37,162 nt of DNA from Syntrophomonadaceae bacterium (GCA_007130585.1 SLSE01000180.1:1-37162), one strand, 5' to 3'. Numbered from the stretch's first letter, positions 4,009 through 19,186 are shown. The notes: a model not told the origin generated them from the sequence alone. Made by a program: numbers and translations.

Positions 4009-4989
4009 TTAAATAACTGCCCGGCCCGGCTCTATTTCTATATTTTCCCACTTGCCGCAGCGCCCGCCCCATCTGGCCAGTAATTTGCCGTCAAGCGACA
4101 GGTTAACAACTTCACAGATATTGGAGCAGTCGTTGCAGGTAAAAGTTTTCGCTTCGAAGTTTAGATCACTGAGAGAAAAACCCCTGAAGGATGTTTCCCC
4201 TTTTTCTTCCATGGCATAACGGGCCAGGACAGCAGACCCGATAGCGCCCATCACATTATAGTGACCGGGAACAATTACTTCCATATCCAGGGCCTTCTCG
4301 AAGGCGGCCTTAATGCCCACATTAGCGGCCACCCCTCCCTGGAAAACCACGGGCCCCAGGATTTCTTTGCCTTTGCCGACATTATTCAGATAGTTGCGGA
4401 CCAGGGCCTCGCAGAGCCCGGCAATAATATCTTCAATACCGTAGCCCATTTGCTGCTTGTGAACCATGTCGGATTCTGCAAAAACCGAGCAGCGCCCGGC
4501 AATCTGCGCCGGGCTTTCGTTCTTCAGGGCCAGGGAGCCGAAATCCTCGATAGGTATGCCCAGGCGGGCGGCCTGGTGATCGAGAAAGGAGCCCGTTCCG
4601 GCTGCGCAGACGGTATTCATGGCAAAATCGACGACCACACCGTGACGCAGGATCATTATTTTTGAATCCTGTCCCCCGATCTCAAGGACGGTCTGAACGC
4701 CGGGTACTTCAAGATCGGCGGCTATAGCATGAGCCGTAATTTCATTTTTTATCACATCGGCGCCAACGGCCGCCCCAACCAGGCTGCGGGCGCTGCCGGT
4801 AACTCCCGCACCGGCAATCGCCGCTCCCGCGGGCATCTTCCCGGCCAGGCTTTTGAACCCTTCCTGGACAACCCTGATTGGCTGTCCTCTCGTGCGCAGG
4901 TATTCAGAAGCAAGGACCCGGTTTGCGTCATCAATAATGACCAGGTTTGTACTGACAGAACCGACATCTATTCCCAGGTATATTTTCAT
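4009..4989 (-). CDS. BadF/BadG/BcrA/BcrD-type ATPase (HgdC-like 2-hydroxyacyl-CoA dehydratase activase family)
   Basis: 326-aa ORF starting MKIYLGIDVGSVSTNLVIID (actin-fold phosphate-1 motif). It has EIGGQDSK and CAAGTGSF blocks and a Cys-rich tail (CNDCSNIC...GGRCGKW). It starts 6 nt after the upstream gene ends. Confidence 0.85.
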   Translation of the reverse strand: MKIYLGIDVGSVSTNLVIIDDANRVLASEYLRTRGQPIRVVQEGFKSLAGKMPAGAAIAGAGVTGSARSLVGAAVGADVIKNEITAHAIAADLEVPGVQTVLEIGGQDSKIMILRHGVVVDFAMNTVCAAGTGSFLDHQAARLGIPIEDFGSLALKNESPAQIAGRCSVFAESDMVHKQQMGYGIEDIIAGLCEALVRNYLNNVGKGKEILGPVVFQGGVAANVGIKAAFEKALDMEVIVPGHYNVMGAIGSAVLARYAMEEKGETSFRGFSLSDLNFEAKTFTCNDCSNICEVVNLSLDGKLLARWGGRCGKWENIEIEPGRAVI

Positions 4990-4995
4990 ATAAGA

Positions 4996-6039
4996 TTAAC
5001 CCGCCCTGCTTTGCAGGCGCTTTGCGCACAGCATGTCGACGAATGCTTCGAGACGGGTCTGCACACCTCCTTCACCGGTATGCTCGTCAATAGTGAGGCC
5101 CAGAAAAGGCACACCGGCAGCTTTAGCTTCCAGCTCCAGGGTTTTATCGACCATTGCATCGGGGCCGCAGCCAAAAGCTGTGACATGGATAATCCCGTCA
5201 ATATACTTCTTTTGTTCCAGCAGGTACAGGCCGGCCCAGAAAACCTTGTTGCTGTAATACCAGAAAAAATTCTGGGGCAACTGCTTTGATATCCGGCGCA
5301 TCTCGCGCAGGGGTATCTGATCGTATGTAATTACCTCCACTCCCAGCTTCACCAGCTTATCGTAAACTCCGGCACTGATAAAAGAGTCATAAATTGCATA
5401 AGGATAGCCCAGCAGGGCAACAACAGCTTTTTTAGCCTTACCCTGACCGCCAGGCTTACTGCCGGCGAGGTAATCGCCCTCCTGCTTCTGCCCGAAAATT
5501 ACCTCCCGGGCTTCTGCCGGCTTTAATCCTTTAGATAGGAGCAGATTATACTCCCTGTGCCTGCGAAGGGCAGAGGCGGCGGCAGAAATTATTTTAAAAG
5601 GATTCCTTACTCCCAGGGAGTGGGCGACAGAAAAAAAGAAACGAAACTGCCCGCCCGGGAAGCCGCTGCAGTCATAGCGGGCATCAATCAGTTCAGGAAG
5701 CCCGGAGCCTGTGAAGCGGATCATATCGGGCAGGCCCAAAAATTTGGGGCAAAAAGTGGATTTACCGTCGGCGCTGATCATACGGGGGACAAAGATGTAG
5801 TCCACCCTGCCGGCAAGATCAAAAACATGACCGTGAAATATTTTAATAGGGATACAGGCATCATTTACCGTTTCCCTGATCCCTTCTTCGAGGATTTTCC
5901 GGTTGGTAGCAGCGGAAACGATCACCTCAGCGCCCAATTTCTCGAGAAACACCCTCCAGAGAGGATAGAAACTGTAGTAAGCAAGGGAACGGGGAATGCC
6001 AACCTTAACCTGCCTTTTCAAATATTTCACCTCTAACAT
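4996..6039 (-). CDS. DUF2229-type protein with a dehydratase-subunit-like C-terminus (activase-associated)
   Basis: 347-aa ORF. VKVGIPRSLAYYSFYPLWRVFLEKLGAEVIVS matches my memory of the DUF2229 region of 'CoA-substrate-specific enzyme activase' proteins. The C-terminal HVTAFGCGPDAMV...GLTIDEHTGEGGVQTRLEAFVDML resembles C-termini of 2-hydroxyacyl-CoA dehydratase/BcrB-like subunits. The ATG at 6039 has no Shine-Dalgarno. A TTG at 6019-6021 lies 5 nt after GAGGTGA and may be the real start. Confidence 0.7.
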   Translation of the reverse strand: MLEVKYLKRQVKVGIPRSLAYYSFYPLWRVFLEKLGAEVIVSAATNRKILEEGIRETVNDACIPIKIFHGHVFDLAGRVDYIFVPRMISADGKSTFCPKFLGLPDMIRFTGSGLPELIDARYDCSGFPGGQFRFFFSVAHSLGVRNPFKIISAAASALRRHREYNLLLSKGLKPAEAREVIFGQKQEGDYLAGSKPGGQGKAKKAVVALLGYPYAIYDSFISAGVYDKLVKLGVEVITYDQIPLREMRRISKQLPQNFFWYYSNKVFWAGLYLLEQKKYIDGIIHVTAFGCGPDAMVDKTLELEAKAAGVPFLGLTIDEHTGEGGVQTRLEAFVDMLCAKRLQSRAG

Positions 6040-6486: not shown

Positions 6487-6515
6487 ATTATATAAAATTG
6501 CGAGTCATATGTCAA
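6487..6515 (-). promoter_or_regulatory. Consensus sigma-70 promoter firing leftward (minus strand)
   Basis: The minus strand reads TTGACA (plus 6510-6515), an exact 17-nt spacer TATGACTCGCAATTTTA, then TATAAT (plus 6487-6492). It is divergent from the tRNA-Pro promoter. Confidence 0.6.
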
Positions 6516-6639: not shown

Positions 6640-6716
6640 CGGGGCGTAGCGCAGTTTGGTAGCGCGCTTGGTTCGGGACCAAGAGGCCGGAGGTTCAAAT
6701 CCTCTCGCTCCGACCA
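6640..6716 (+). tRNA. tRNA-Pro (anticodon CGG), CCA encoded
   Basis: Cloverleaf folded by hand. Acceptor stem CGGGGCG/CGCTCCG has one G-T pair. D-arm is GCGC-AGTTTGGTA-GCGC. Anticodon stem is CTTGG/CCAAG with loop TTCGGGA (anticodon CGG at 6674-6676). T-loop is TTCAAAT, the discriminator is A, then CCA at 6714-6716. Confidence 0.95.
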
Positions 6717-6720
6717 CCAA

Positions 6721-6759
6721 CAGGGAAAGCACGGTTAAAAACCGTGCTTTCCCTGTTTT
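6721..6759 (+). terminator. Rho-independent terminator after tRNA-Pro (possibly also stops the convergent operon)
   Basis: A perfect 15-bp stem CAGGGAAAGCACGGT / ACCGTGCTTTCCCTG with loop TAAAA is followed by TTTT. It lies between the tRNA and the 3' end of the minus-strand operon that ends at 6819. Confidence 0.8.
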
Positions 6760-6818: not shown

Positions 6819-7094
6819 TCAGGATTTCAGGTCATCAAGTTTTTTCTTGACGTCATCTGATTTCTTTTCGAATTCTTTTTTGGCTTCTTCCCACTTTTCT
6901 TCTCCGATATCTTTTACGGCATCCAGGTTATTCCTGGCTTCATCTTTCTTTTTCTGCAGTTGATCGATCTGTTCCTGGTATTTTATTTTTGCATCGGCGC
7001 CTGCCTTCTCAGCCTGGGCTTTCTTTTTGTCGATTTCAGCCTGCACCTCTTTAATCAGTGCTTCCTGTTTTTCCTGGTAGGCTTTCTTATCCAT
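6819..7094 (-). CDS. Hypothetical Lys/Glu-rich coiled-coil protein (91 aa)
   Basis: The ORF has heptad-like charged composition (EKQEALIKEVQAEIDKKKAQAEKAG...). It starts 3 nt after the upstream gene's stop, so it is probably co-transcribed. I recognise no family. Confidence 0.55.
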   Translation of the reverse strand: MDKKAYQEKQEALIKEVQAEIDKKKAQAEKAGADAKIKYQEQIDQLQKKKDEARNNLDAVKDIGEEKWEEAKKEFEKKSDDVKKKLDDLKS

Positions 7095-7097
7095 CAG

Positions 7098-7928
7098 TTA
7101 TTCACCTCCTTGCGTTGCAAATAGATCTTGCAGGGCATCAAAAAGAACCTCTTTCAGCTTCCCGATTCTTCTTAACGCTGCCCGATCCGGTCCTGCCGTC
7201 CGGGGTTCGGATATAAGATACAGCGAGCGGTTTATCTCAAGCTGAATCCAGGGGATGCGGCCGGCCCGGCCGTGTTTTCTTGTTATATAACCACCGCTGA
7301 AAGGCCGGTTAAGCTGTACGGCAGGAATCCCCGCGCAATGATAGTACTTCTTCAGGTAGCGCTCTAATACCTGCCTAAGGGTCCTGATTAATTCCGGCGG
7401 GGCTGAAACAGGCCCATCCAGGGCATTTCCGTCAGGGTCGCCCAGGTTGCCAAGGCAAACCGGGGGCCGCTCCCGGCCGGAGTCAGCGGAGTTATCCGGC
7501 CCCCGGGCCAGCATGGTATGGCAGTCAAGGCCCAGCAGGATATTCCGGTTTCCGGAGGCCGCTGATAGCAGCGCGTGGTAAGGGTAGTAGTAGCGATCCA
7601 GGAGCTGCTTAACCTGCCTGCCGGTCAATCCTGCCGGGTCCTGCCAGATATATTCGTCATTTACAGTTACAGTTTTCACAACCCCGTCGGGGTTTTGGGG
7701 CGGCCGATCGCCTGCAGCCCGGTTAACGTCAACTACGGCCCGGGCAACAGGAAATTGAAACCGGGCCCGGACTCTTTCGCCAAAATCGTATAAATAACCG
7801 GCCCAGGTGTCCCCGTCCCTGAGCAGGGCCTGCAGGTCAAGACGGCAGCAACTGCTGACTTCCGGCGGCACTTCCAGCCCCCCGTGGGGAACAGATATTA
7901 ACAGCGGGAGGCAGTTGATCGGCGCCAT
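7098..7928 (-). CDS. N-formylglutamate amidohydrolase (FGase, HutG-type) family protein
   Basis: 276-aa ORF with blocks I recognise from the FGase family: ISVPHGG, VARAVVDVNR, YYYPYH, LGLDCHTM, LNRPFSGGYITRKHG, IQLEINRSLY. A GGAGGA Shine-Dalgarno lies within the end of the upstream gene. Confidence 0.8.
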   Translation of the reverse strand: MAPINCLPLLISVPHGGLEVPPEVSSCCRLDLQALLRDGDTWAGYLYDFGERVRARFQFPVARAVVDVNRAAGDRPPQNPDGVVKTVTVNDEYIWQDPAGLTGRQVKQLLDRYYYPYHALLSAASGNRNILLGLDCHTMLARGPDNSADSGRERPPVCLGNLGDPDGNALDGPVSAPPELIRTLRQVLERYLKKYYHCAGIPAVQLNRPFSGGYITRKHGRAGRIPWIQLEINRSLYLISEPRTAGPDRAALRRIGKLKEVLFDALQDLFATQGGE

Positions 7929-7935
7929 TATCGAT

Positions 7936-10104
7936 TCAGTCCTCCAATAGCAGCAGGGTTAACAGCAGGGCCCTCTGCAATAGTTCTCCCCGGTGGATAC
8001 ATTCGTGAGGAGTAAACATATCCCGGCTGGCCGGGGCAAATCCGCAGATTACCGGTATGCCCGCGGGCACCTCGCCGGCGGCTGAAGGCAGCAGGCTGGA
8101 ATCGACACCAAAGGGAAGGTTCCACTCTTCGCTGATCTTTTTAAGCTGCGCAATAACAGCTTCAGCCGCCGTGGAACGATTTAAAGGAGGCCTTTCTTCA
8201 AGCCTTTCTATATAAACTTTGGTTTCATCCCCTTCCTCCTGCTGCGACTCAAACAACGAATGGAGTCTCGTTTCCGCTTCATCGGCCCGCTCTGAATCAA
8301 GAAAGGTAATATAAACTATGGCCCTGATCCGGTGCGGGAGCAGAACGCTATAGCGTTCGGAATGAACCTCCTGGACGGCAACGGTTAGCCTTTCTTCAGG
8401 ACAGCTCAGTGTGCCGATCTGATCCGCCCGGCTTAAGAACCAGCTCATCAGGTCGCTTTCCGAATCGTGAGCCCCGATCCGCTTAAATTCACCTTCCACC
8501 AGGATGCTGAATTTTCGGGAACCCCGGCGCTGATCAACAATCTTACCGCTGCGAAACCCGGGCTGCATAATAATCACCCGTCCCGCTTTTGAGGCAGCCT
8601 GCTGCAGGTATGGAGCGCTGTAACGCATCCCCCGGCCTTCATCGGCATAAATAAACACGCCCGGCTTGGCAGTTTCCAGCTTTTCCACCTGCTTCAGGGT
8701 TTTCAGCACCTGCAGGATACAGGCCAGACCCGCCCGGCTGGAAGCGATACCCTCGCCGTAAAGCCATTCCGGATCACGGCGAAAAGGGATAGGATATCCG
8801 CCACCTCCATCGCGGGGTACATCTATAGAAGCTACCAGCAGGGTGCCTCCCTCCAGGCCGGCGTCTGTCTGCCAGGTCCAGGCCGAGCGCTTGCTGCTAA
8901 ACTGTTTGGCAATAGACAACCCCAGTTCTGCAAACCGGTGCTCCAGTCTTTTTATCACTGTTCCCAGCCCGACGGGATCTCCTGTCCAGCTGGGCAGGTT
9001 AGTCCAGTTTTTTAATTCTTCTTCATACTCATCCCGGCAATGGATAAGGTTTGTAAAGGCCGTTGTCCTCGGATCATCATGAAGCAGGGAAGCGCTGTCC
9101 TCGCTAATTAGGGGTCCGAAATAGCGCTGGCTGGTCACCTCGATCAGCCGGTTGACCAGGGCGCTGTAATCCAGGCCGATAGTTTTTGCAGCATACACGT
9201 AAGAACCGCCCGGTCCCAGGCTGGCCATTGAATTTACTTCCAGGATATACGGATTGCCCCGGTCATCAATCCTGAAATCCACCCTGGCGCTGTCAAAACA
9301 GCCCAGCGCTTTAAAAGCATCTACGGCCAGCATTTTGACCTTCTCGGTTACCGCCGGTTCCAGGGGCGCAGGGCAAATGGTTTCCAGTTCCCGGCCGCTG
9401 GTTTTTATTTTATCCTCGTAGGTATAAATCTGCTCCCCTTCTTTAAAAACTATTTCCACGGGAGGAAAAGCTTCCACGGGATCGTTCCCGAGGAGGCCCA
9501 CGTTTATTTCACGTCCGGCAATATATTCTTCCACCAGGGTCGGGGCCCTGAACATGTTGTAAATTACCTCGACCCCTTCCCGCAGCTCCCGATCATTATT
9601 AACAATCTTCAGGCCAAATGAAACCGCCTCATCCTTGGGCTTCACAATTAAAGGGTACCTCAGGCCCTCACTGAGGGGCAGAGGAAAAGCGGGTGTTTCA
9701 AGAACAGTAAAATTGGGGGTGGGAAGTCCTTTCTGAAGTAAAACCATCTTGGTCAGCACTTTATCCAGGGCTATTGCGTGGGTTTCCGGTCCGGAGCCGA
9801 CATAGGGAATGCCCAGCATTTCAAGGATACCCGGGATATGGGTATAGCGGGCCCGTCCCTGGATTCCGTAACTCAGGTTAAAAACCAGGCCGGGACGCTC
9901 TCCCGATATTACGGTGGGCATAAATTCTTCCAGGGCGGAAATGATATTTTTGTCCCCCTCAAAAGCCTTCACCTGGTGCCCCCCGGCCTCAAGAGCTTCC
10001 GTGATCATATCTATTGTCTGCAGGCCGTATTTCTCGCGGTTGGGCGTTCCGAAAAGGTTGATTACCGCCTGGCTGTCGCGGTTATAGATTATTGCTATTT
10101 TCAA
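7936..10104 (-). CDS. Fusion protein: Ddl-like ATP-grasp ligase (about aa 1-330) plus an M20-peptidase-like domain (about aa 345-722), paralogue A
   Basis: 722-aa ORF. The N-terminal half has Ddl-family ATP-grasp features (IPGILEMLGIPYVGSGP, DKVLTKMVLLQKGLPTP, PLIVKPKDEAVSFGL, EEYIAGREINVG, RVDFRIDDRGNPYILEVNS). The C-terminal half resembles the M20 catalytic plus lid domains (YGEGIASSRAG, IYADEGRGMRYS, FSILVEGEFKRIGAHD, TPHECIH). It starts 4 nt after the ggt stop. Confidence 0.8.
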   Translation of the reverse strand: MKIAIIYNRDSQAVINLFGTPNREKYGLQTIDMITEALEAGGHQVKAFEGDKNIISALEEFMPTVISGERPGLVFNLSYGIQGRARYTHIPGILEMLGIPYVGSGPETHAIALDKVLTKMVLLQKGLPTPNFTVLETPAFPLPLSEGLRYPLIVKPKDEAVSFGLKIVNNDRELREGVEVIYNMFRAPTLVEEYIAGREINVGLLGNDPVEAFPPVEIVFKEGEQIYTYEDKIKTSGRELETICPAPLEPAVTEKVKMLAVDAFKALGCFDSARVDFRIDDRGNPYILEVNSMASLGPGGSYVYAAKTIGLDYSALVNRLIEVTSQRYFGPLISEDSASLLHDDPRTTAFTNLIHCRDEYEEELKNWTNLPSWTGDPVGLGTVIKRLEHRFAELGLSIAKQFSSKRSAWTWQTDAGLEGGTLLVASIDVPRDGGGGYPIPFRRDPEWLYGEGIASSRAGLACILQVLKTLKQVEKLETAKPGVFIYADEGRGMRYSAPYLQQAASKAGRVIIMQPGFRSGKIVDQRRGSRKFSILVEGEFKRIGAHDSESDLMSWFLSRADQIGTLSCPEERLTVAVQEVHSERYSVLLPHRIRAIVYITFLDSERADEAETRLHSLFESQQEEGDETKVYIERLEERPPLNRSTAAEAVIAQLKKISEEWNLPFGVDSSLLPSAAGEVPAGIPVICGFAPASRDMFTPHECIHRGELLQRALLLTLLLLED

Positions 10105-10108
10105 CGCT

Positions 10109-11761
10109 TCATACCTCCCTGTCGTTCGTGTTTATGAACTGCGGCCCGCGGGCACTGCCATCCCGCCGGGGGTCAGACACGCCGGTAAAGTCTCCACCGG
10201 GCGTTTCCGGAAGTTTAACGGCATGCACGCTGCCCAGGTAGAAACTGTAAGCCCCTTTGCCCGTAACCTGAAAACCGGCCCGGCTCAAAGCCTCTACCAC
10301 CTCCGGCCGGTATATTCGCTTTTCGATGGCCGCCTTCCCGCTGCTGCCCGCGTGCAGGCGGGGCGCTTCAACGGCCTCACCCAGGCTCTGACCCGAATCG
10401 ATAACCCGGCAAATAACCTGGGCCAGGACCGTTGATATCCGTTCACTGCCCGGGCTGCCCAGCATCATCAGGGGCTCTCCATTTTTCCTGAACAGGAGCG
10501 TAGGAGCCACGCTGCTGAAAGGGCGCCCCCCGGGGATCAGGAAGTTCGGATGAAGCATGTTCTTGTAATCAAAGGCGCTCATATAATTGTTATAAAAAAA
10601 TCCCAGGTTCCCGGTCATGGTTTTTGCACCGAAAACCAGCTCGATCGATTGGGTTATCCCCACGATATTGCCATAGGAGTCGGCAGCCGACAGGTGGGTT
10701 GTTTCTCCCGAGGTGGGCGGAGGTTCAAATTTTTCTTCAGCCACATACAGCAGCAGATCTTTAATCCGGGATGCAATATGGGAAGCGCTGCCTTTGTCAA
10801 CCATCCACCGGTCATCGAGCTGGGGGTAACGGGCCGGATCAATCGGCAGCCGTTCCCTTTTAACCAGGGCAGCCCGAAAAGCCATGGCCAGCAGCAGGTA
10901 GCAGAGAGGGCTGTCCGGAAGCAATCTTTCCGCATCAAAGAGCTCCAGGATATTTAAAATCTGGACCAGGGCCCGCCCTGCGCCCGGAGGAGGGTAAGTA
11001 GCCAGCGCATAGCCGCGGTAAGAACCTTTTAAAACCTCCCGTTGGATGGGATAGGGAATCTGGCTTAAATCCGCCCTGGATATGTAGCCGTTACGCTGCT
11101 TCATGTCCTCCAGGATGCTTTCGGCAATATCTCCCAGGTAAAAATCCCGCCAGCCCTTCTCTGCGATCTGTTCCAGGCAGGAGGCAAGCTGGGGCTGGTA
11201 CGCGGTATCGCCGGCGTTCAGGGGCCTGCCGTTCTTGAAGAAAATTGAGCGCACCGTTTGATCCTTGAGCTTTTCTTTTTCCCTGGCCAGAAGCCTCTGC
11301 TGAAGGGCGGTAATCTTAAACCCGTATTTGGCGGCGCCTATAGCCGGCTTAAGAACCACGTCGATGGGAAGCGTTCCGTAAGTTTCGAGAAGGTATCCGA
11401 GCGCAGCCGGGGTGGAAGGCACGGTGGAAGCGCTGAGACCCAGCTTGAGAGGCCGGGCAGGAAGCCGGCTGGGATTGATTTCAAAAGGGGCCCGGGAGGA
11501 TCCGTCCAGGGCAACGGTTACCGGCTCACCGTTGGGGCAGTGGTGCAGCAAGACCATGCTCTGCCCGCCCAGGCCTGAAGCCTGCGGCTCTGTAACTCCC
11601 AGGCAGAAAGCAGCAGCCACTGCGGCATCAACGGCGTTGCCACCCAGCTCAAGCATCCGCACTCCCGCTTCGGTAGCCGGATCGGACGCGGTTGAAACCA
11701 TGCCATAACGGCTGGTGGCTGTTTTTGCTTTTTTCTGTTTAATATCTTCTGTTTCGGCCAA
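10109..11761 (-). CDS. ggt: Gamma-glutamyltranspeptidase family protein without a signal peptide
   Basis: 550-aa ORF with VDAAVAAAFCLGVTEPQASGLGGQ, the autoprocessing/nucleophile block GETTHLSAADSYGNIVGITQSIE, and GSPGSERI. The N-terminus is hydrophilic (MAETEDIKQKKAKT) with no signal sequence. The start is TTG at 11761 by my reading, with an alternative ATG at 11701 (MVSTASD). Confidence 0.9.
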   Translation of the reverse strand: MAETEDIKQKKAKTATSRYGMVSTASDPATEAGVRMLELGGNAVDAAVAAAFCLGVTEPQASGLGGQSMVLLHHCPNGEPVTVALDGSSRAPFEINPSRLPARPLKLGLSASTVPSTPAALGYLLETYGTLPIDVVLKPAIGAAKYGFKITALQQRLLAREKEKLKDQTVRSIFFKNGRPLNAGDTAYQPQLASCLEQIAEKGWRDFYLGDIAESILEDMKQRNGYISRADLSQIPYPIQREVLKGSYRGYALATYPPPGAGRALVQILNILELFDAERLLPDSPLCYLLLAMAFRAALVKRERLPIDPARYPQLDDRWMVDKGSASHIASRIKDLLLYVAEEKFEPPPTSGETTHLSAADSYGNIVGITQSIELVFGAKTMTGNLGFFYNNYMSAFDYKNMLHPNFLIPGGRPFSSVAPTLLFRKNGEPLMMLGSPGSERISTVLAQVICRVIDSGQSLGEAVEAPRLHAGSSGKAAIEKRIYRPEVVEALSRAGFQVTGKGAYSFYLGSVHAVKLPETPGGDFTGVSDPRRDGSARGPQFINTNDREV

Positions 11762-11861
11762 CCCGGTTTCCCCGCTTTCCTTAAGCTTGTTATAGATTTA
11801 TACCACACCTTTGGCCGGCGGTAAATTAAAAATGCTGCCGGCCAGTATTATGCCAGGGCAG

Positions 11862-14030
11862 TTAATCTTCCAGCAAGAACAGTGCTAAGAGGACCAGACG
11901 CTGCATAAGTTCTCCGCGATGGATACATTCATGGGGAGTATATATGTCCCGGCCGGCCGGCCCGAATCCGCATATGACCGGGATACCCGCCGGCACTTCT
12001 CCGGCGGCCGAAGGCAAAAGGCTTGCCTCCAATCCAAAAGGAAGCCTCCAGGTGTCGCTTAGTTTTTCCAGCCGATCAATTAATTTTTCCGTTTCCGGAG
12101 AGCAGATCAAAGGCGGCCTTTCCACCATTTTTTCAATATATACGCTGGGTTCGCCCTGCAGACCCTGCGAGGGGGCAAAAAGCATTCTCAGCCGGATTTC
12201 CGCCTGGTCGGCCAGCTCCGGCTCCAGGAATGACACATACACCATGGCCCTGATCCTGTGGGGAAGCAGAACGCTGTGACGCTCCGACTGCACTTCCTGG
12301 AGCGCAACTGTTACTTTTTCTTCCGGTCTGTTTAAGGAATCTATCATATCCGCCCGGCTTACAAACCACTTCATCAGGTTACCGAGAGTATCCCGGGCTC
12401 CGATGCGCTGAGATAATCCTTCGATCAGGATATTGAATTTTCGCAGCCCCCTGCGTTGATGCACAACTTTGCCGTTCAGGAAACCGGGCTGCAAGACTAT
12501 TACCTGCCCAACCCGGGAAGCAGCTTTCTGCAGCAGTTTGCTGCTGTATCTCATGCCACGCCCCTCGTCTGCATAAAGAAATATCCCGACTTTATTACAC
12601 TGGAGCCTCTCTGCATAATGCAGGCCTTTAAGAACTTTTAGAAGAGAGGCAATACCGGCCCGGCTGGAAGCAATGCCTTCTCCATACAGCCATTCAGAGT
12701 CCTGCCGGAAAGGCATGGAATAAGCGCCGGCCCCGTAGCCGGGAACGTCGACCGGAACAACAAGAAGAGTTCCTTCTTCAAAACCGGCTGCAGTTTCCCA
12801 GGCCCAGACCGAGCGGTAGTCCGAAAATGCTTCAACCGGCTTAAGGCGCAGTTCCATTAACCTGGACTCCACTCTTTTGATTACAGCCCCCACCCCGACA
12901 GGATCATCAGTGCAGCTCGGCAAACCGGTCCAGTTTTTCAGTTCCTCTTCCAGCTGATCTCTACCCTGTGTAAGAAAAGTAAAGATTTTTGTCCGCGGGT
13001 CATCACTGGTAAACGCTTCACTGCTCTCCGGATAGAAAGGTCCGAAATAGCGTTGACTGGCAATTCTTATCAGGCGGTTGACCAGTTCGCTGTATCCCAA
13101 CCCGGTTTTTTTAGCGGCAAACACGTAAGACCCCTTTGGCTCAAGGCTGGGCATAGAGTTAACCTCCAGGATATAGGGGTTTTCTTCGGAATCCAGGCGA
13201 AAGTCTATACGGGCGCTATCGAAGCAGCCCAGGACCTGAAATGCTTCTACGGCCATTGACTGAATTTTTTCAGTTAACCCCGCCTCCATGAGAGCAGGGC
13301 ATATTTTCTCCAGCTTGCGGCCGCTGGCAAGGATCTTATCCTCGTAGGTATAGATGCGCTCACCTTTATCAAAAATCACTTCAACGGGAGGAAAGGCCTG
13401 CACCGGATTATTACCAAGCAACCCGACATTTATTTCGCGGCCTTCTATATACTCTTCGACCAGGGTTGGAGCCCCGTACATATCATAAATGGCCTTCACC
13501 CCTTCCCGTAACTCTTCATTGTTTCGCACAATTTTTAATCCCAAGGAAACCGCTTCACCCCTGGGTTTTACAATGAGTGGAAAGCGCAGTTCGTCGGCAA
13601 GGGGCAGATTAAAATCGGGGCTTTCGATGACAGTAAATTTGGGAGTGGGCAGACCTTTCTGCAGCAGCACTATTTTAGTCAGCACTTTATCGAGGGCAAT
13701 TGTATGTGTTTCGGGGCCTGAACCCACATAAGGGATGCCCAGCATTTCCAGGATGCCCGGTATATGGGCATAGCGGGCCCGCCCCTGGATACCGTAGCTA
13801 AGGTTGAAAACCAGCCCCGGACGTTCGCCTGATATAACCGTTGGCATAAACTTTTCAAGGGCGGTTATAACATTTTTATCGCCCTCAAAAGCTTTAACCT
13901 GATGTCCTCCCACCGTCAGAGCGCCCATGACCATATCAATGGTTTCCAGGCCGTACTTTTCCCGGCTTGGAGTCCCAAAGAGGTTAATCACAGCCTGGCT
14001 TTCCCGGTTAAAAATCACGGCAACTTTCAC
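11862..14030 (-). CDS. Fusion protein: Ddl-like ATP-grasp ligase plus an M20-peptidase-like domain, paralogue B
   Basis: 722-aa ORF, collinear with paralogue A over its full length. It has the same motif set, for example GILEMLGIPYVGSGPETH, YGEGIASSRAG, LYADEGRGMRYS, TPHECIHRGEL, and the same ...LLED C-terminus. GTG start at 14028-14030 is preceded by GGGGAGGG. Confidence 0.8.
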   Translation of the reverse strand: MKVAVIFNRESQAVINLFGTPSREKYGLETIDMVMGALTVGGHQVKAFEGDKNVITALEKFMPTVISGERPGLVFNLSYGIQGRARYAHIPGILEMLGIPYVGSGPETHTIALDKVLTKIVLLQKGLPTPKFTVIESPDFNLPLADELRFPLIVKPRGEAVSLGLKIVRNNEELREGVKAIYDMYGAPTLVEEYIEGREINVGLLGNNPVQAFPPVEVIFDKGERIYTYEDKILASGRKLEKICPALMEAGLTEKIQSMAVEAFQVLGCFDSARIDFRLDSEENPYILEVNSMPSLEPKGSYVFAAKKTGLGYSELVNRLIRIASQRYFGPFYPESSEAFTSDDPRTKIFTFLTQGRDQLEEELKNWTGLPSCTDDPVGVGAVIKRVESRLMELRLKPVEAFSDYRSVWAWETAAGFEEGTLLVVPVDVPGYGAGAYSMPFRQDSEWLYGEGIASSRAGIASLLKVLKGLHYAERLQCNKVGIFLYADEGRGMRYSSKLLQKAASRVGQVIVLQPGFLNGKVVHQRRGLRKFNILIEGLSQRIGARDTLGNLMKWFVSRADMIDSLNRPEEKVTVALQEVQSERHSVLLPHRIRAMVYVSFLEPELADQAEIRLRMLFAPSQGLQGEPSVYIEKMVERPPLICSPETEKLIDRLEKLSDTWRLPFGLEASLLPSAAGEVPAGIPVICGFGPAGRDIYTPHECIHRGELMQRLVLLALFLLED

Positions 14031-14112
14031 TGGTTTTCCCTCCCCGTCAATACAGGATTATTACCTGGAACCGGGCTATCCCGGGTATATAATTGTGAAA
14101 AAAATGCCGCTT

Positions 14113-15429
14113 TCAGGAAAAAGCCATTTCGGCAACCTGGTGCTTCGGAACAAAGTAGTTGGCAGCCAGGATGAGCAGGGCCGCAGCCACAGCACCGGTA
14201 GAGCTGAGCTGAATGGCTGTTGACAGGCCAAGAAAGTTTGACAGAAAACCTGTCAGGTAAGGACCGAAGCTGTAAACAACCGTGTAAGCGGTACTGAAAA
14301 GACCGAAACCGGCCCCCTGGTAGCGGGGAGGCATATTTCGCATTACATACGAGTTGATCAGGGTATTTGTATTGAGGCAGGCCGCGCCCAGCAGGGCCAA
14401 CACTGCCAGCAGCTGCCAGTGACCTTCAACCAGGGTAAGAGCAAAAAAAAGGCTCACACTGATAACCAGGTTGGAAAATAAAACGGGGTTGTTACCGAAA
14501 CGGTCGGCCAGCCAGCCTATGACAATTTTCGCCGCCAGGCCGGCTACCGCAACAATGATAAACATCCTGTTGGCCACCTCAAAGCTATAACCTCTTTCCT
14601 CGACCAGAAATGTGGGGATAAATGTGTTAATTCCCGTCCAGGACAGGGCCCCTAATCCACCGACCAGGGTACTCCAGATCAGAAACCGCCTGATTACCGG
14701 GTTGCGAAAAATAACTGAAGAGGTAAATGTTTGCTGCAGAAAACCTTTGACAACGCTACCCGCGGCTGTCCCCTGCCCGGACAGGTTACTGCTTTCTTCA
14801 CGGGTTGACTGATGCGCAGCCGTATAATTTTTTTCAAAACCGGCCGAACGCCCCCGGTAGCGATAAAATACAAATGTCAGAGCAGCCAGAAGAACTCCGG
14901 AAACCGCAAAAAGAAGCTGCCAGTTTAAAAAAAGAACAAAAACTGTAACCACTGCCGGGGAAGAGATGGCAGCTATCATACCGAAAGATTCGAATGCAGC
15001 CGTGGCTGTAGCAGCCCGCTCGCGGGAACCAATTATCACGGCCAGGGTGTAGCCGGCGGTTACATATATACCGCTGCTGACTCCCAGTATAAAAGTCATT
15101 GCAGCCAGGATTGAATATCCCGGCGAGAGGGCGACTCCAAGGAAAGAGAGGGCCATTGCCGCGCTGCCGATCATGACAGTTTTCGTGCAGCCGATTTGAT
15201 CGGCCATGATTCCCGAGGGAAAGCGGGCCAGGGCATAGCCGAAAAAAACCAGGGTAACAAGCAGGCCGGCCTGGGCGTTGTCGATCAGGAAGGCCTCGCG
15301 GAGGGGAATAAGAAGGGGCGGGAACAGGTTCTTGGTATAACCCTGAAACAAAAATATAACAGCGTTAAGCATAAAAACCGTTCCCGTGATCAGGCCCAGC
15401 ACACTTTGCTGCTGCTGTTTGTTACTCAT
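14113..15429 (-). CDS. MFS transporter (first gene of the ATP-grasp/GGT operon)
   Basis: The ORF track gives 499 aa. The first 61 residues are Arg/Ser/Cys-rich and not membrane-like. I therefore call the ATG at 15427-15429 (MSNKQQQQSVLGLITGTVFML), which is preceded by AAGGCGGGG. Multiple TM helices with an MFS-like loop (ARFPSGIMADQIGC) and a central hydrophilic loop. Confidence 0.8.
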   Translation of the reverse strand: MSNKQQQQSVLGLITGTVFMLNAVIFLFQGYTKNLFPPLLIPLREAFLIDNAQAGLLVTLVFFGYALARFPSGIMADQIGCTKTVMIGSAAMALSFLGVALSPGYSILAAMTFILGVSSGIYVTAGYTLAVIIGSRERAATATAAFESFGMIAAISSPAVVTVFVLFLNWQLLFAVSGVLLAALTFVFYRYRGRSAGFEKNYTAAHQSTREESSNLSGQGTAAGSVVKGFLQQTFTSSVIFRNPVIRRFLIWSTLVGGLGALSWTGINTFIPTFLVEERGYSFEVANRMFIIVAVAGLAAKIVIGWLADRFGNNPVLFSNLVISVSLFFALTLVEGHWQLLAVLALLGAACLNTNTLINSYVMRNMPPRYQGAGFGLFSTAYTVVYSFGPYLTGFLSNFLGLSTAIQLSSTGAVAAALLILAANYFVPKHQVAEMAFS

Positions 15430-15547
15430 CTTATGCCCCGCCTTTCTTGACCCGCTACAGGAGGCTGACGGAAAAACATCTCCTGTCACAATTTTAACAT
15501 AATTTAAGTTTGCCCGGGCTGCCGGGCAGGCCCTGTCCTGTGGCAGT

Positions 15548-15564
15548 GAAGAATATAATTCTTC
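15548..15564. promoter_or_regulatory. Perfect 7-3-7 palindrome GAAGAAT-ATA-ATTCTTC in the promoter region of the MFS/ATP-grasp operon (candidate operator)
   Basis: Read directly from the sequence. The arms are exact reverse complements. It lies between the upstream terminator (15604-15638) and the MFS start (15429). It overlaps -10-like hexamers on both strands and is flanked by two copies of CCCGGGCTG. Confidence 0.35.
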
Positions 15565-15603
15565 CCGGGCTGTTGCGGTCAGAAGCAGGAAGGACTTTCC
15601 CGT

Positions 15604-15638
15604 TAAAAACACAGCACGCAGATCAGGCTGCGTGCTGC
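15604..15638 (-). terminator. Rho-independent terminator after the TspO-like gene
   Basis: The minus strand reads CAGCACGCAG-CCTGAT-CTGCGTGCTG (10-bp stem) followed by TGTTTTT. Confidence 0.75.
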
Positions 15639-15678
15639 AGGAAAGTAATCTCTGCTTTTAAACCGCGGTTCCGCTTGC

Positions 15679-16467
15679 CTAACCGCCTGTCATTTTTTTC
15701 TGCAGAAACGGGAGCTCGCCCTTGCGGGCGGCAATCCAGCCCAGGAAGAAAATTATCCCCGCAGCTGCCAGCCAGGAAACTACTGTCAGAAAAGGTATTG
15801 CCGTTCCGTGGCGCACCCCGATCCCGACCAGGGCCCAGACAAAAACAGCAGCGTAAATATAGTCCTGCCGCAGGTAGAAAACAGCCAGGGCGATCAGGGC
15901 GGCAATAATCGCCATCAGCATGGTAAAGAAAACCGCGCCGGTGCCGGTGCCCAGCCAGTCTATACTGTAAAGCCAGGCATTGAAGTTAACTATCGAGGCT
16001 GCCGAGATCCAGCCCAGGTAAAGGCTGAAGGGGTATTTGACCAGGATACGGTCAAAAATGTTTTTCTCTGCCGTAACTGCGCCCAGGCGGAGGTAAATCA
16101 CAACCAGGGTGGCCAGTAGCAGCAGGATAATAACCAGGGACCAGCCTATACGCTGGTAGTGCCAGACAAACAACCAGGCAATATTAAATATACTGCTCAC
16201 GGCAAATAATATGCCCACAGCTTTAACTGCCGGATTTTCGCGGTATTGAGGCAGAGCCTGGTAAATAATAAAAGCAATCAGGGCAAGGTAAATCAGGCCC
16301 CATATTGAAAATGCATATGCAGCAGGGGTAATCAGGACCGGATATTCGGCGGCCAGATCCTCCTGGGTCATGTTGTTAAAGGGAATGGCATTGGAGAGAA
16401 AATTAAACAGCAGCACGAGGGCCAGCGCTCCAATATTAATATAAGCCCGGATATCGCTTCGAATCAT
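15679..16467 (-). CDS. Integral membrane protein, TspO/MBR-related (Trp-rich)
   Basis: 262-aa ORF with about 7-8 TM helices and many Trp residues. AYAFSIWGLIYLAL and KYPFSLYLGWISAASIVN blocks resemble TspO-like proteins. The family call is tentative. Confidence 0.45.
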   Translation of the reverse strand: MIRSDIRAYINIGALALVLLFNFLSNAIPFNNMTQEDLAAEYPVLITPAAYAFSIWGLIYLALIAFIIYQALPQYRENPAVKAVGILFAVSSIFNIAWLFVWHYQRIGWSLVIILLLLATLVVIYLRLGAVTAEKNIFDRILVKYPFSLYLGWISAASIVNFNAWLYSIDWLGTGTGAVFFTMLMAIIAALIALAVFYLRQDYIYAAVFVWALVGIGVRHGTAIPFLTVVSWLAAAGIIFFLGWIAARKGELPFLQKKMTGG

Positions 16468-16532: not shown

Positions 16533-17795
16533 TTAAATTTTTACCGGTGCGCCGGGAAAGCGCATTGTCGCGAAATAATCGTCAATTGTTTCCGCCCTCC
16601 GGATCAGCCGGACCGAACCATCTTCGCGGAGCAGCAGTTCGGCGGAACGAAGTTTTCCGTTATAATTAAAGCCCATAGAGTAACCATGCGCCCCGGCATC
16701 GTGGATTACCACCAGGTCACCCGGTTCAATAACCGGCAGGGGACGATCGATCGCAAATTTATCGTTGTTTTCGCATAAAGAACCGGTCACATCATAAACC
16801 TTATCCGCGGGAAGAGATTCTTTGCCCGGAATGGTAATGTGGTGGTAGGCGCCGTAGATACCGGGGCGCATCAGGTTGGCCATACAGGCATCCAGTCCGA
16901 CATATTCCTTGTACTTTCGGGCAACATGGCGGACCCTGCCGACCAGGTAGCCGTAAGGGCCGGTTACCAGGCGGCCGCATTCGAATACAATCTTAACCGG
17001 ATCAAGCCCTTCCTTAACCAGCAGGCTTTTGTAAAGATCACGAATCCCGCCGGAGACCAGGTTCATATCCACGGCCCGGTCTCCGGGACGGTAAGGGATA
17101 CCGATACCGCCGCCCATATTTATGATCTCCACGCTGATCCCGCACTGCTGTTTCAGGCTGACCGCCAGCTCAAAAAGCATGCGGGCGGTCTCCACGAAAT
17201 AAGTATTTTCCAGTTCGTTTGAAGCAACCATGCTGTGCAGCCCGAAGCGTTTAACTCCCCTGGCCTTCATAATCCGGTAAGCTTCGATAACCTGGTCGCG
17301 GGTCACCCCGTACTTGGCTTCCTGCGGTTCTCCGATTAATACATTGCCGGTACGGGCTTCTCCGGGGTTGTAGCGGAACGAAATCAGTTCGGGAATGCCG
17401 GCGCTTTTTTCCAGCGTTTCTATGTGGCCGATATCGTCCAGGTTAATTACCGCCCCGAGACGGTAAGCTTCTGCAAATTCTTCGCCCGGGGTATCGTTAG
17501 AAGTAAATACGATCTCTTCGCCCCTGAAACCGACTTTTTCCGAGAGCAGCAATTCTGCCATTGAACTGCAGTCAACACCCATATTTTCTTCCTGCAAGAT
17601 GCGCAGGATAGCGGGGTTGGGACAGGCCTTTACGGCGAAATGGTTTTTGAAACCGCCTACCCAGGAAAAAGCCCTGTAAAAAGCGCGCGCATTATCCCTG
17701 ATTGCCTTTTCGTCGTAAATAATAAAGGGGGTGGGATAATCTGCCGCTATATTTTCCAGTTGCGTTTTGTTAAAAGGAATCTTTTTTTCAGCCAT
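16533..17795 (-). CDS. lysA: Diaminopimelate decarboxylase (group IV PLP decarboxylase)
   Basis: 420-aa ORF with a PLP-lysine block (HFAVKACPNP), MGGGIGIPY and SLCENNDKF. It sits next to the dapL-dapA-dapB genes on the same strand. Confidence 0.85.
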   Translation of the reverse strand: MAEKKIPFNKTQLENIAADYPTPFIIYDEKAIRDNARAFYRAFSWVGGFKNHFAVKACPNPAILRILQEENMGVDCSSMAELLLSEKVGFRGEEIVFTSNDTPGEEFAEAYRLGAVINLDDIGHIETLEKSAGIPELISFRYNPGEARTGNVLIGEPQEAKYGVTRDQVIEAYRIMKARGVKRFGLHSMVASNELENTYFVETARMLFELAVSLKQQCGISVEIINMGGGIGIPYRPGDRAVDMNLVSGGIRDLYKSLLVKEGLDPVKIVFECGRLVTGPYGYLVGRVRHVARKYKEYVGLDACMANLMRPGIYGAYHHITIPGKESLPADKVYDVTGSLCENNDKFAIDRPLPVIEPGDLVVIHDAGAHGYSMGFNYNGKLRSAELLLREDGSVRLIRRAETIDDYFATMRFPGAPVKI

Positions 17796-17923
17796 TTTTG
17801 CCGCCTCCGTCCCTGTTGTTTGCTTGTGTAGAAATTATTACTGCAGCCGTTCCCGATCATCGGCCGGGTGAACTCCCTGGAGATGTTTCAGCGACCGGGT
17901 TGCCCGGGCAGGTCCGGCTGGAG

Positions 17924-19153
17924 CTATAATACCAGGTTATCCCGGATGCTTTTCATCGCTTCCCCGATGTCTTCGCGGTGACCGAAAGCGCTCAGCCGGA
18001 AATAACCCTCGCCTGCAGGCCCAAAACCTGAACCGGGAGTCCCGACCACATGAGCTTCATGAAGCAGTTTATCAAAAAAACCCCAGGATGAGAGCTCCCC
18101 GGGCGTCTTCAGCCACAGGTAGGGAGCATTGATCCCGCCGTAAACAGTAAGCCCTGTTTTTTGCAGGCCTTCCCTGATCAGGCGGGCATTTTCCATGTAA
18201 TAGCCGATTACTGCGGCGCATTCCTGCCGGCCCTGCTCGCCGAGTACCGCCACGCCGCCGCGCTGGGCGATATTCGAAGCCCCGTTAAAGAATGTTGTCT
18301 GCCTGCGCAGCCAGCTGCGATGAAGTTCGCCCGGCTCGCTGTCTTCACAGACCAGGCTGCGGGGCACTACGGACCAGCCAAGACGTACCCCTGTGAAGCC
18401 GGCGGATTTTGAAAAGCTGTTTATTTCAATGGCGCATTCAGCAGCGCCTTCAATTTCATAAATGGAGCGGGGCAGGTCAGGATCGGATATAAATTCTGAA
18501 TAGGCGGCATCAAAAATGATAACCGCCCTGTGGCTGCGGGCGTAGTCGACAAACTTCCGCAGATTTCCGCGGCCTGCAACGGCGCCTGTCGGGTTGTTCG
18601 GGCTGCAGAGGTAAACCAGGTCGACTTTTTCCTGCGGCGGTTCAGGAATAAAGCCGTTTTCGCTGTTACAGGTCATGTAAACAAAGCCGCCGTAATTACC
18701 CGTGCCGCTATCGAAGCTGCCCGACCGGCCCGCGATCACGTTTGTGTCAACGTAAACGGGGTAAGCAGGATCCTGGAAGGCAACCAGGTTGTCGCTGCTG
18801 AATATAGACTGGATATTCCCCGCATCGGGCTTGGCTCCGTCACTGATAAAAATTTCATCTTTATCAAGCTTAATGCCCCGTTTTCCGTAAAACCGGGCCA
18901 GGCTTTCCCGGAGATCTTGGTCGCCCTGCTCATCTCCGTAACCGGTATAGGTTTCAGCTGCGGACAAATTATTTACAGCGTCATGCAAACCTCTTATTAC
19001 AGAAGGAGGCAGCGGTTCTGTAGTATTACCGATCCCCAGGCGGTGTACCCTGGCCTGCGGGTTGTCCTGCTGAAAAATCTTTATCCTCCGCCCTATTTCA
19101 GGGAAGAGGTATCCTGCGCTTAATTTCCGGTACTCCCTGTTTATTCTGGCCAT
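17924..19153 (-). CDS. dapL: LL-diaminopimelate aminotransferase
   Basis: MARINREYRKLSAGYLFPEIGRRI is the typical DapL N-terminus. NSFSKSAGFTGVRLGW is the PLP-Lys block. I prefer the ATG at 19153 (GGAGA about 10 nt upstream) over the track start at 19174, which has no Shine-Dalgarno. Confidence 0.9.
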   Translation of the reverse strand: MARINREYRKLSAGYLFPEIGRRIKIFQQDNPQARVHRLGIGNTTEPLPPSVIRGLHDAVNNLSAAETYTGYGDEQGDQDLRESLARFYGKRGIKLDKDEIFISDGAKPDAGNIQSIFSSDNLVAFQDPAYPVYVDTNVIAGRSGSFDSGTGNYGGFVYMTCNSENGFIPEPPQEKVDLVYLCSPNNPTGAVAGRGNLRKFVDYARSHRAVIIFDAAYSEFISDPDLPRSIYEIEGAAECAIEINSFSKSAGFTGVRLGWSVVPRSLVCEDSEPGELHRSWLRRQTTFFNGASNIAQRGGVAVLGEQGRQECAAVIGYYMENARLIREGLQKTGLTVYGGINAPYLWLKTPGELSSWGFFDKLLHEAHVVGTPGSGFGPAGEGYFRLSAFGHREDIGEAMKSIRDNLVL

Positions 19154-19186
19154 AGCACGTCTATCTCCTGTCATAAATTATTGCGA

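Follow-up and report, generated by a model that had tools for sequence, protein, structure and literature searches.

A 37,162-nucleotide stretch of DNA from a Syntrophomonadaceae bacterium (GCA_007130585.1 SLSE01000180.1:1-37162), hereafter called the window, carries between positions 6819 and 15429 six co-directional genes on the minus strand, which an earlier note made from the sequence alone had put forward as an operon for making and breaking peptide bonds. We recovered all six as open reading frames (ORFs), and a survey of relatives showed that the conserved unit is a trio of them, not the whole set: a homologue of gamma-glutamyltranspeptidase (GGT), a fusion of a Ddl-type ATP-grasp domain to a domain resembling the M20 peptidase CPG2, and a homologue of N-formylglutamate amidohydrolase (FGase). 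We tentatively propose that the trio works in the cytoplasm, where it would spend ATP to ligate an amide in some glutamate-containing small molecule or short peptide and would also hydrolyse that amide, and that it is tied to alkaline or saline life. This is the reading that we prefer, though we hold it as plausible rather than probable.

The linkage was assessed by scanning a single representative genome for each of 185,579 species, which yielded 214 confirmed stretches encoding relatives of the fusion; because homologues occur in so few of these species-representative genomes, the fusion is not a housekeeping protein. From the 214 stretches, 80 loci were taken for neighbourhood counts, their ORFs being searched with the window proteins and their neighbours then clustered de novo. 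Of the 80 loci, 77 have the fusion, 56 a GGT homologue next to it and 46 an FGase homologue, several of the loci counted without a partner gene being contig ends; the next commonest neighbour family reached 10 loci at most. The trio spans at least five phyla and comes in two gene orders, GGT–fusion–FGase in Bacillota and fusion–GGT–FGase in Izemoplasmatales/'Mollicutes', Verrucomicrobiales, Desulfobacterota (including Desulfonema magnum), Scalindua, Pirellulales and Zixibacteria. As a compact, isolated operon it is present in Alkaliphilus metalliredigens QYMF and in Alkalihalophilus pseudofirmus. Eight metagenome-assembled genomes (MAGs) of Izemoplasmatales/'Mollicutes', a group regarded as wall-less, carry it as well. 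Linkage of the operon genes, whose absence outside this genome the earlier note would have counted against itself, thus recurs across phyla for the trio, but not for the transporter gene, the gene for a 91-residue protein or the second copy of the fusion found in the window.

The two copies of the fusion, here called fusA and fusB, share one layout, with the ATP-grasp domain at residues ~1–330 and the CPG2-like domain at ~400–722. The N-terminal half matched Ddl best, both in sequence (PDB, E ~1e-32) and in fold (Foldseek template-modelling (TM) score ~0.83 for the AlphaFold2 model of fusB, whose mean predicted local distance difference test (pLDDT) was 81), and Pfam Dala_Dala_lig_C was detected in both copies (1e-39 and 6e-38; 136.6 and 130.8 bits). 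Residues K215/R255/D257/E270/N272 of DdlB, the reference sequence of which was checked for length and residue identities, correspond to K232/R274/D276/E289/N291 in both copies and are invariant in the family. Since this set of Ddl-type catalytic residues is complete, the N-terminal half should be able to form an acyl-phosphate and then an amide bond. The D-Ala1 triad of Ddl (E15/S150/Y216) was not kept, S150 being replaced by V161 and Y216 by I233, while E15 is matched by R23 in fusA and falls opposite a gap in the alignment of fusB. All the NCBIfam Ddl models scored below their cutoffs (NF002378, 178.3 and 177.4 bits against 243; TIGR01205, 160.5 against 245.65). We conclude that the N-terminal half, though no D-Ala-D-Ala ligase, is an amide ligase predicted to be active; a housekeeping Ddl variant was rejected on account of the scores, the missing triad and the conserved linkage.

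The RimK model of Pfam gave a secondary match only (30.7 and 16 bits), and so did the TTL model. Relatives of the ATP-grasp half include stand-alone proteins of ~335 residues, tandem double ATP-grasps and fusions to 7TM_transglut (the latter at ~45% identity), which suggests a wider Ddl-like clade that is uncharacterised. Seven such relatives (P0156, P0161, P0164, P0150, P0154, P0166 and P0158) showed ~31–46% identity, and one ATP-grasp relative is a 1,646-residue protein with a dockerin domain.

In its C-terminal half, the fusion adopts the two-lobed fold of CPG2, with a catalytic and a lid/dimerisation lobe (Foldseek 1cg2/6xj5, E ~1e-22, TM 0.73–0.75). This half was matched by a CPG2 profile (E 2e-12) and, over residues ~435–719, by Pfam Peptidase_M20 PF01546 (2.5e-8 and 3.4e-6; 34.5 and 27.5 bits, cutoff 24.6). 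In pairwise and profile alignments alike, the zinc ligands of CPG2 are replaced, H112 by Pro, D141 by Ser, E176 by Gly and E200 by Gln, and these replacements are fixed or nearly fixed in the family. The general base Glu489 (CPG2 E175, in an invariant DEG motif) and the HxD aspartate Asp428 (CPG2 D114) are retained. By prediction, the C-terminal half cannot bind a di-zinc centre, and it is most likely a pseudo-peptidase. The fusion itself is consequently probably not both maker and breaker of bonds, as the earlier note had it for each copy, given the loss of four out of five zinc ligands of CPG2. Despite this loss, 34 positions of the C-terminal half, several of them Arg, are conserved at ≥95%, implying that the domain keeps some non-catalytic role, presumably in binding or oligomerisation. 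R457, R494, R526/R527, R638 and R705 make up a conserved cluster of arginines.

The most conserved part of the fusion is nonetheless its beginning, where 56 of the first 110 columns (window ~9775–10104 in fusB) are conserved at ≥95% across phyla. These same residues have the lowest confidence in the fusB model (pLDDT ~50), a combination that may reflect a fold dependent on a ligand or partner, or else a shallow diversity of the alignment.

The GGT homologue aligned end to end with E. coli GGT (2e0w) and missed the cutoff of TIGR00066 marginally (353.8 bits against 357.85). Its nucleophile Thr354, in a GETTH motif, is invariant in the 54 linked orthologues, and both Thr370 and the carboxylate-site pair Ser416-Ser417 are conserved. 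The intact Thr nucleophile block described in the earlier note was thus confirmed, but the donor pocket departs from that of a canonical GGT. The equivalents of N411/Q430/D433 in the E. coli enzyme (E423/E442/D445 in that of Bacillus subtilis) are Glu374/Tyr393/Ala396, invariant in the 54 orthologues and canonical at the first position alone; in addition, the Arg114 position is held by Ser, with an Arg two residues on, and this too is invariant or nearly so. Residues of the N411/Q430/D433 type bind the alpha-amino group of the donor, and the D445A and D433N substitutions abolish transpeptidation while hydrolysis is kept, the change from Asp to Asn also giving glutaryl-7-aminocephalosporanic acid (glutaryl-7-ACA) acylase activity (PMC8062742). 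Because Tyr393 and Ala396 take the place of alpha-amino-binding residues, the pocket suggests a cytoplasmic hydrolase for gamma-amides that lack a free alpha-amine; the donors suggested by these residues are N-acylated glutamyl, internal gamma-glutamyl or glutaryl-type compounds. With regard to location, a simple hydrophobic-run test revealed no signal peptide among the 54 linked orthologues (four flagged runs belonged to the mature domain), in line with the signal-less enzyme noticed earlier.

In each of the 45 linked orthologues, the third member of the trio keeps the motif residues of the FGase family (His15, Asp67/Asn69/Arg70, His137 and Glu231). It scored 72.4 bits with TIGR02017, the HutG equivalog model, against a cutoff of 278.75, and no histidine-utilisation (hut) gene was present in any neighbourhood examined. 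When its AlphaFold2 model (pLDDT 94.8) was compared with known structures, the only good Foldseek matches were two uncharacterised members of the FGase family (2q7s, TM 0.74–0.76; 2odf, ~0.6). Other zinc-amidase folds and M14 folds were remote (TM 0.3–0.4), and a closeness of the protein to poly-gamma-glutamate hydrolases was consequently not supported. Cell-wall amidases and the gamma-D-Glu-mDAP carboxypeptidase Csd4 were among the remote neighbours.

CPG2 recognises N-acyl-glutamates, and all four enzyme families represented in the trio include members that act on N-acyl or gamma-amide bonds of glutamate. In the reading that we prefer, the ATP-grasp half would form an acyl-phosphate and then an amide bond at the expense of ATP, and the pseudo-CPG2 half would be there to bind a carboxylate-rich, Glu-terminated ligand and/or to dimerise. 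The GGT homologue would act as a hydrolase, not a transpeptidase, on gamma-amides of N-blocked glutamyl or glutaryl-type donors, and the FGase homologue would cleave a bond of the N-acyl-glutamate type. Together, ligase and hydrolases would set the level of a glutamate-based amide (oligo-glutamyl or N-acyl-glutamyl), which could be a compatible solute, a counter-ion or a buffer, useful at high pH or high Na+. Among the three hypotheses of the earlier note, synthesis and turnover of a gamma-glutamyl or D-amino-acid peptide fits these observations best, a fit that falls short of proof. A more specific version, in which alkaliphilic and saline-adapted bacteria make and turn over an undescribed cytoplasmic glutamate-based amide (for example, an N-blocked oligo-gamma-glutamyl compound) and use it adaptively as solute, buffer or counter-ion, with the zinc-less CPG2-like domain as the substrate holder, is in our opinion rather doubtful.

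Some non-orthologous neighbours of the fusion also point to Glu/Gln amide chemistry. A gene for a class-I glutamine amidotransferase (GATase/Peptidase_C26) adjoins the fusion upstream in two loci (L050, 9285–9995, where it overlaps the start codon of the fusion; L068, 8684–9259), and a PGA_cap (CapA/PgsA-family) gene abuts it in two others (L038, 8870–9985; L023, 118–897). These loci are without GGT and FGase genes, and the GATase stands in the slot that GGT holds elsewhere.

The taxa carrying the module are biased toward alkaline and saline habitats, which bears out a hint in the earlier note. At least 43 of the 80 loci belong to alkaliphilic isolates or to MAGs of soda-lake or serpentinite origin, habitat classes being assigned by reading record titles. 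Named carriers are Alkaliphilus, Evansella, Alkalihalophilus, Alkalihalobacterium, Salipaludibacillus and Alkalicoccus, and further Anaerobacillus, Desulfitispora alkaliphila, Heliorestis, Natranaerovirga and Serpentinicella.

To this core, the lineage of the window has added an anion-type transporter of the major facilitator superfamily (MFS) and a stress protein of the sll1863 family, and this genome also a second intact ligase copy. The best curated matches of the transporter, all far below the cutoffs of NCBIfam, were to PgtP, D-galactonate and aromatic acid:H+ families of the anion:cation-symporter type; among the loci examined, an orthologue stands upstream of GGT solely in L001 and in three soda-lake relatives (L083–L085). 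The 91-residue protein matched NF052504 with 74.4 bits (cutoff 35; 6.1e-21), its residues 2–91 covering profile positions 1–90 of 93. The description of it as a Lys/Glu-rich coiled coil was hence right as to a helical, Lys/Glu-rich protein, and incomplete in view of this above-cutoff match to a stress family. Its gene has the same position in L083–L085, and among the 80 loci a homologue was found only in L001, ~7 kb distant. Few proteins of Synechocystis are induced by salt as strongly as Sll1863, a general stress protein that responds to many other stresses too (PMC8670252). Since their linkage to the trio is confined to the lineage of the window, both genes are regarded as lineage accessories.

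The second copy of the fusion is peculiar to this genome, the closest relatives having one. The two copies are 69% identical, and in a neighbour-joining tree fusB grouped with syntenic orthologues (P0004 and L003) and fusA with orthologues that occur as single copies in a sister soda-lake lineage (L001, P0002 and P0003). This placement implies that fusA is not a recent tandem duplicate; from the sequences, the second copy looks acquired, or the outcome of an ancient duplication with differential loss. When the two window spacers were aligned to the single MFS–GGT spacer of L083, no insertion scar was seen; the sequences were too diverged. Both copies appear intact, as fusA deviates at just one of the 162 family positions conserved at ≥95% (161/162) and fusB at none.

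Several points weigh against our proposal. The sequences show the catalytic competence or incompetence of the domains, the lack of signal peptides and the genetic linkage; the identity of the substrate and the physiological role are what we infer, and the specificity for glutamate comes from family precedents rather than from diagnostic residues of the ligase. The ligase can work without adjacent hydrolases, given that ~15 of the 80 loci hold the fusion alone; there its partner is not consistent, and de novo clustering of neighbours in these loci gave no universal alternative. As for the pseudo-peptidase, the fifth zinc ligand (CPG2 H385) lies outside the alignment, its counterpart being a Tyr or Phe judged by eye only, and some other catalytic chemistry is conceivable despite the lost ligands, Glu489 and Asp428 being kept. 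The alkaline link is a bias and not a rule, because the marine or neutral Desulfonema magnum, Scalindua and Verrucomicrobiales carry the module. The sll1863-family gene is linked to the trio in the window lineage only, and inactivation of sll1863 produced no salt-sensitive phenotype (PMC8670252). Finally, nine loci (L003, L021, L029, L030, L034, L036, L049, L060 and L066; for example, L049 6489–8153) encode a GAF-sigma54-AAA+-HTH_8 enhancer-binding protein no more than a few kb from the fusion, and an activator of this kind is typical of catabolic operons, too.

This activator, which recurs in several phyla, would suit a catabolic or salvage route, in which an imported glutamate-containing compound such as a stem peptide is taken up through the MFS or Opp transporter and dismantled by the hydrolases, one fragment being re-ligated or activated by the ATP-grasp domain. 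The MFS gene directly upstream, an Opp-type ABC system nearby in the window lineage, the likeness of the ligase to Ddl, and the presence of cell-wall amidases and Csd4 among the structures remotely similar to the FGase model all speak for such a route. However, conservation of the trio does not extend to the transporter, an ATP-consuming ligase would be unusual in a purely degradative pathway, and a sigma54 promoter motif was found neither upstream of the operon in the window nor, as a canonical –24/–12 motif searched with a strict pattern, in the nine activator-bearing loci. For a cell-wall substrate in particular, the ligase lacks the D-Ala1 triad and falls below all Ddl cutoffs, the trio occurs in the presumably wall-less MAGs, and genes for diaminopimelate (DAP) synthesis adjoin it in the window lineage only. 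We therefore judge the salvage route unlikely, and its peptidoglycan form, the second hypothesis of the earlier note, is disfavoured. The third one, modification of a cofactor tail, is possible.

We consider it equally unlikely that the trio serves to tag a conserved protein or peptide reversibly with glutamate or another amino acid, with the fusion as writer and the GGT- and FGase-like proteins as erasers or recyclers of the released chains. The exceptional conservation of residues 1–110 would fit an enzyme docking to a conserved macromolecule, the TTL and RimK secondary matches and the precedent of RimK/RimB lean the same way, and tandem ATP-grasps and 7TM_transglut (RloB-type) fusions are among the close relatives of the ATP-grasp half. 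On the other hand, clustering of neighbours in the 80 loci revealed no conserved candidate substrate gene beside the trio, known GGT and FGase family members are amidases of small molecules or short peptides, and the best match in sequence and fold is to Ddl, a small-molecule ligase. GGTs also possess glutaminase activity, which raises the idea of an amidation machine with the logic of carbamoyl-phosphate synthetase, where the GGT homologue or a class-I GATase would feed ammonia to the ATP-grasp acyl-phosphate and so convert a carboxylate to a carboxamide. The stand-alone GATase in the usual slot of GGT (L050 and L068) and the tight spacing of 4 nt between the GGT stop and the fusB start agree with this idea; but the GATase arrangement is limited to two loci of one lineage, the FGase partner is left unexplained, and GGT-family proteins are not known to act as amidotransferase subunits. 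We regard it as quite improbable. Least credible of all, to the point of being negligible, is a chance co-location of a housekeeping D-Ala-D-Ala ligase variant with unrelated hydrolases. The database names of the homologues ('D-alanine--D-alanine ligase' or 'M20/M25/M40 family metallo-hydrolase') would suggest as much, but the linkage is kept across phyla in two gene orders, and the scores and missing triad are against a Ddl.

The features of the operon and of its boundaries are collected in the following table.

Table 1. Genes and boundary features of the operon region; positions refer to the 37,162-nucleotide window.
Feature	Position	Strand	Evidence and remarks
MFS transporter, 438 aa	14113-15429	-	ATG start; Pfam MFS_1 1.2e-44
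fusA, ATP-grasp::M20-like fusion, 722 aa	11862-14030	-	Pfam; extra copy
GGT-family Ntn-hydrolase homologue, 550 aa	10109-11761	-	Pfam G_glu_transpept PF01019 6.6e-115; core gene
fusB, ATP-grasp::pseudo-M20 fusion, 722 aa	7936-10104	-	Pfam, NCBIfam, AlphaFold2, Foldseek; syntenic orthologous copy; core gene
FGase-family amidohydrolase, 276 aa	7098-7928	-	Pfam PF05013 9.8e-43, 147 bits; core gene
91-aa Lys/Glu-rich helical protein, sll1863 family	6819-7094	-	NCBIfam NF052504; accessory gene
Intrinsic-terminator-like hairpin and T-run	15610-15639	-	12-bp stem, 7 GC pairs, TTTTTAACGG tail; after upstream TspO-like gene
GC-rich hairpin at operon 3' end	6721-6759	T-run on plus strand	directly follows tRNA-Pro(CGG)
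tRNA-Pro(CGG), convergent on operon 3' end	6640-6716	+	Rfam scan

Much of the layout given in the earlier note held. Pfam profiles agreed with its domain content for MFS, ATP-grasp, M20-like, GGT and FGase, and its spacers of about 80, about 100 and then 2–6 nt were computed from the ORF coordinates as 82, 100, 4, 7 and 3 nt, counting from the MFS gene down. No convincing internal terminator or promoter was found in the 82- and 100-nt spacers, which makes co-transcription of the six genes plausible. The start codon of the MFS gene is preceded by a Shine-Dalgarno-like run, GGCGGGG. A terminator had been expected in the 15430–15640 region, and the hairpin and T-run that we saw there, reading from 15639 to 15610 on the minus strand, mark the 5' boundary of the unit. 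The hairpin announced for the 3' end is also present; however, because it adjoins tRNA-Pro and has its T-run on the plus strand, it is mainly the terminator of the tRNA gene and, for the operon, bidirectional at best. An Rfam scan of the window gave tRNA-Pro as the sole match, with no riboswitch or T-box ahead of the operon. In the AT-rich segment 6001–7000 (GC 0.417), a perfect sigma70 consensus, TTGACA-17-TATAAT (12/12), occurs at 6487–6515 on the minus strand; it lies upstream of an activase-like gene pair at 4009–6039 (BcrAD_BadFG ATPase and DUF2229/HGD-D) and is unrelated to the operon.

Upstream of the operon are a gene for a TspO/MBR-family membrane protein (15679–16467) and a lysine/DAP block (16533–20846) with lysA, an aminotransferase gene, a dihydrodipicolinate synthase (DHDPS/dapA-like) gene and dapB. 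In the soda-lake relatives L083–L085, the order is dapB-dapA-dapL-lysA-TspO-MFS-GGT-fusion-FGase-91aa-...-Opp, with a single fusion. The lysine/DAP and TspO synteny is kept in L081 and L083–L085 and is absent from the other carriers of the trio, so that the lysine/DAP genes represent local synteny only.

A conventional M20 peptidase gene (Peptidase_M20 and M20_dimer) lies 5–8 kb downstream of the trio in L083 (20694–21989) and in A. metalliredigens QYMF (L086, 14843–16045); as the soda-lake relative and A. metalliredigens are distant genomes, this may be a coincidence. In six Bacillaceae loci, no riboswitch or T-box was found upstream of the trio, the thiamine pyrophosphate (TPP) riboswitches seen there belonging to downstream thiamine/ECF genes. 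One of the six, that of Alkalihalobacterium chitinilyticum (L031), has a Bacillaceae-1 small RNA motif (79 bits) at 8201–8267, ~100 nt upstream of the GGT homologue; the other five have none.

That the combination is uncharacterised, as the earlier note supposed, is consistent with our searches. A literature search for the fusion or for the trio gene combination found no paper, an earlier in-silico mention in surveys of amidoligases being possible, and there was neither a specific NCBIfam model nor a solved structure in the PDB that gives the fusion or the trio a function. PADLOC returned zero matches for all six proteins, and a defence-system identity was ruled out on this ground.

Control of cytoplasmic pH, charge balance and osmolarity in alkaliphiles and soda-lake anaerobes is only partly understood, and a compact module that is spread over several phyla and concentrated in alkaliphiles and soda-lake anaerobes offers a concrete and testable candidate where a metabolite or pathway is missing. 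Should the more specific version of our proposal hold, both the metabolite and the pathway would be new, and a further case would be added of a peptidase fold taken on by a ligase as a subunit without catalysis. The residue evidence also bears on annotation: it speaks against the activities implied by the names 'D-alanine--D-alanine ligase' and 'M20/M25/M40 family metallo-hydrolase' given to the fusion, the GGT and FGase homologues being currently named 'gamma-glutamyltransferase' and 'N-formylglutamate amidohydrolase'. The fusion offers a clear case of a pseudo-peptidase domain under strong purifying selection beside a ligase predicted to be active, and the GGT homologue seems a natural counterpart of the engineered D433/D445 hydrolase and acylase variants.

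Compared with known systems, the fusion is closest to Ddl through its N-terminal half, which gives the best sequence and fold match and keeps the residues for ATP, Mg2+ and the transition state, but it differs in its extra domain of ~390 residues, its replaced D-Ala1 triad, its non-universal spread and its presence in wall-less lineages. With CPG2 and the M20 metallopeptidases it shares the two-lobed fold, the general-base Glu and the HxD Asp, but four zinc ligands are replaced. The GGT homologue resembles the branch of T03 N-terminal nucleophile (Ntn) hydrolases that comprises GGT, class IV cephalosporin acylase and CapD, in its full-length match, its Thr nucleophile and its Ser-Ser site, and is set apart by the lack of a signal peptide, by Tyr/Ala at the Q430/D433 positions and by the shifted Arg114, features that bring it nearer to the engineered hydrolase/acylase variants. 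The FGase homologue has the Pfam family, fold and motif residues of HutG, but its score is far below the equivalog cutoff and it has no hut context.

The general logic of an ATP-grasp ligase set against opposing hydrolases is already known from RimK/RimB, RloABC and glutathionylspermidine synthetase/amidase. RloABC, like RimK/RimB, combines an ATP-grasp with a peptidase shown in vitro to cleave polyglutamate, and has an osmotic-stress phenotype; its RloB module in P. aeruginosa is 7TM_transglut, the domain fused to some relatives of our ATP-grasp half (PMC11957051). In all of these systems, as in glutathionylspermidine/trypanothione synthetase-amidase, a ligase is paired or fused with an opposing hydrolase that acts on glutamate-containing amides. 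The trio differs from them in that its ATP-grasp belongs to a Ddl-type clade and not to that of RimK or glutathionylspermidine synthetase, and in that its fused hydrolase-like domain is apparently inactive. Its hydrolases, moreover, are of the GGT and FGase families, not retropepsin or CHAP, and no retropepsin-like gene was found in the neighbourhoods of the 80 loci.

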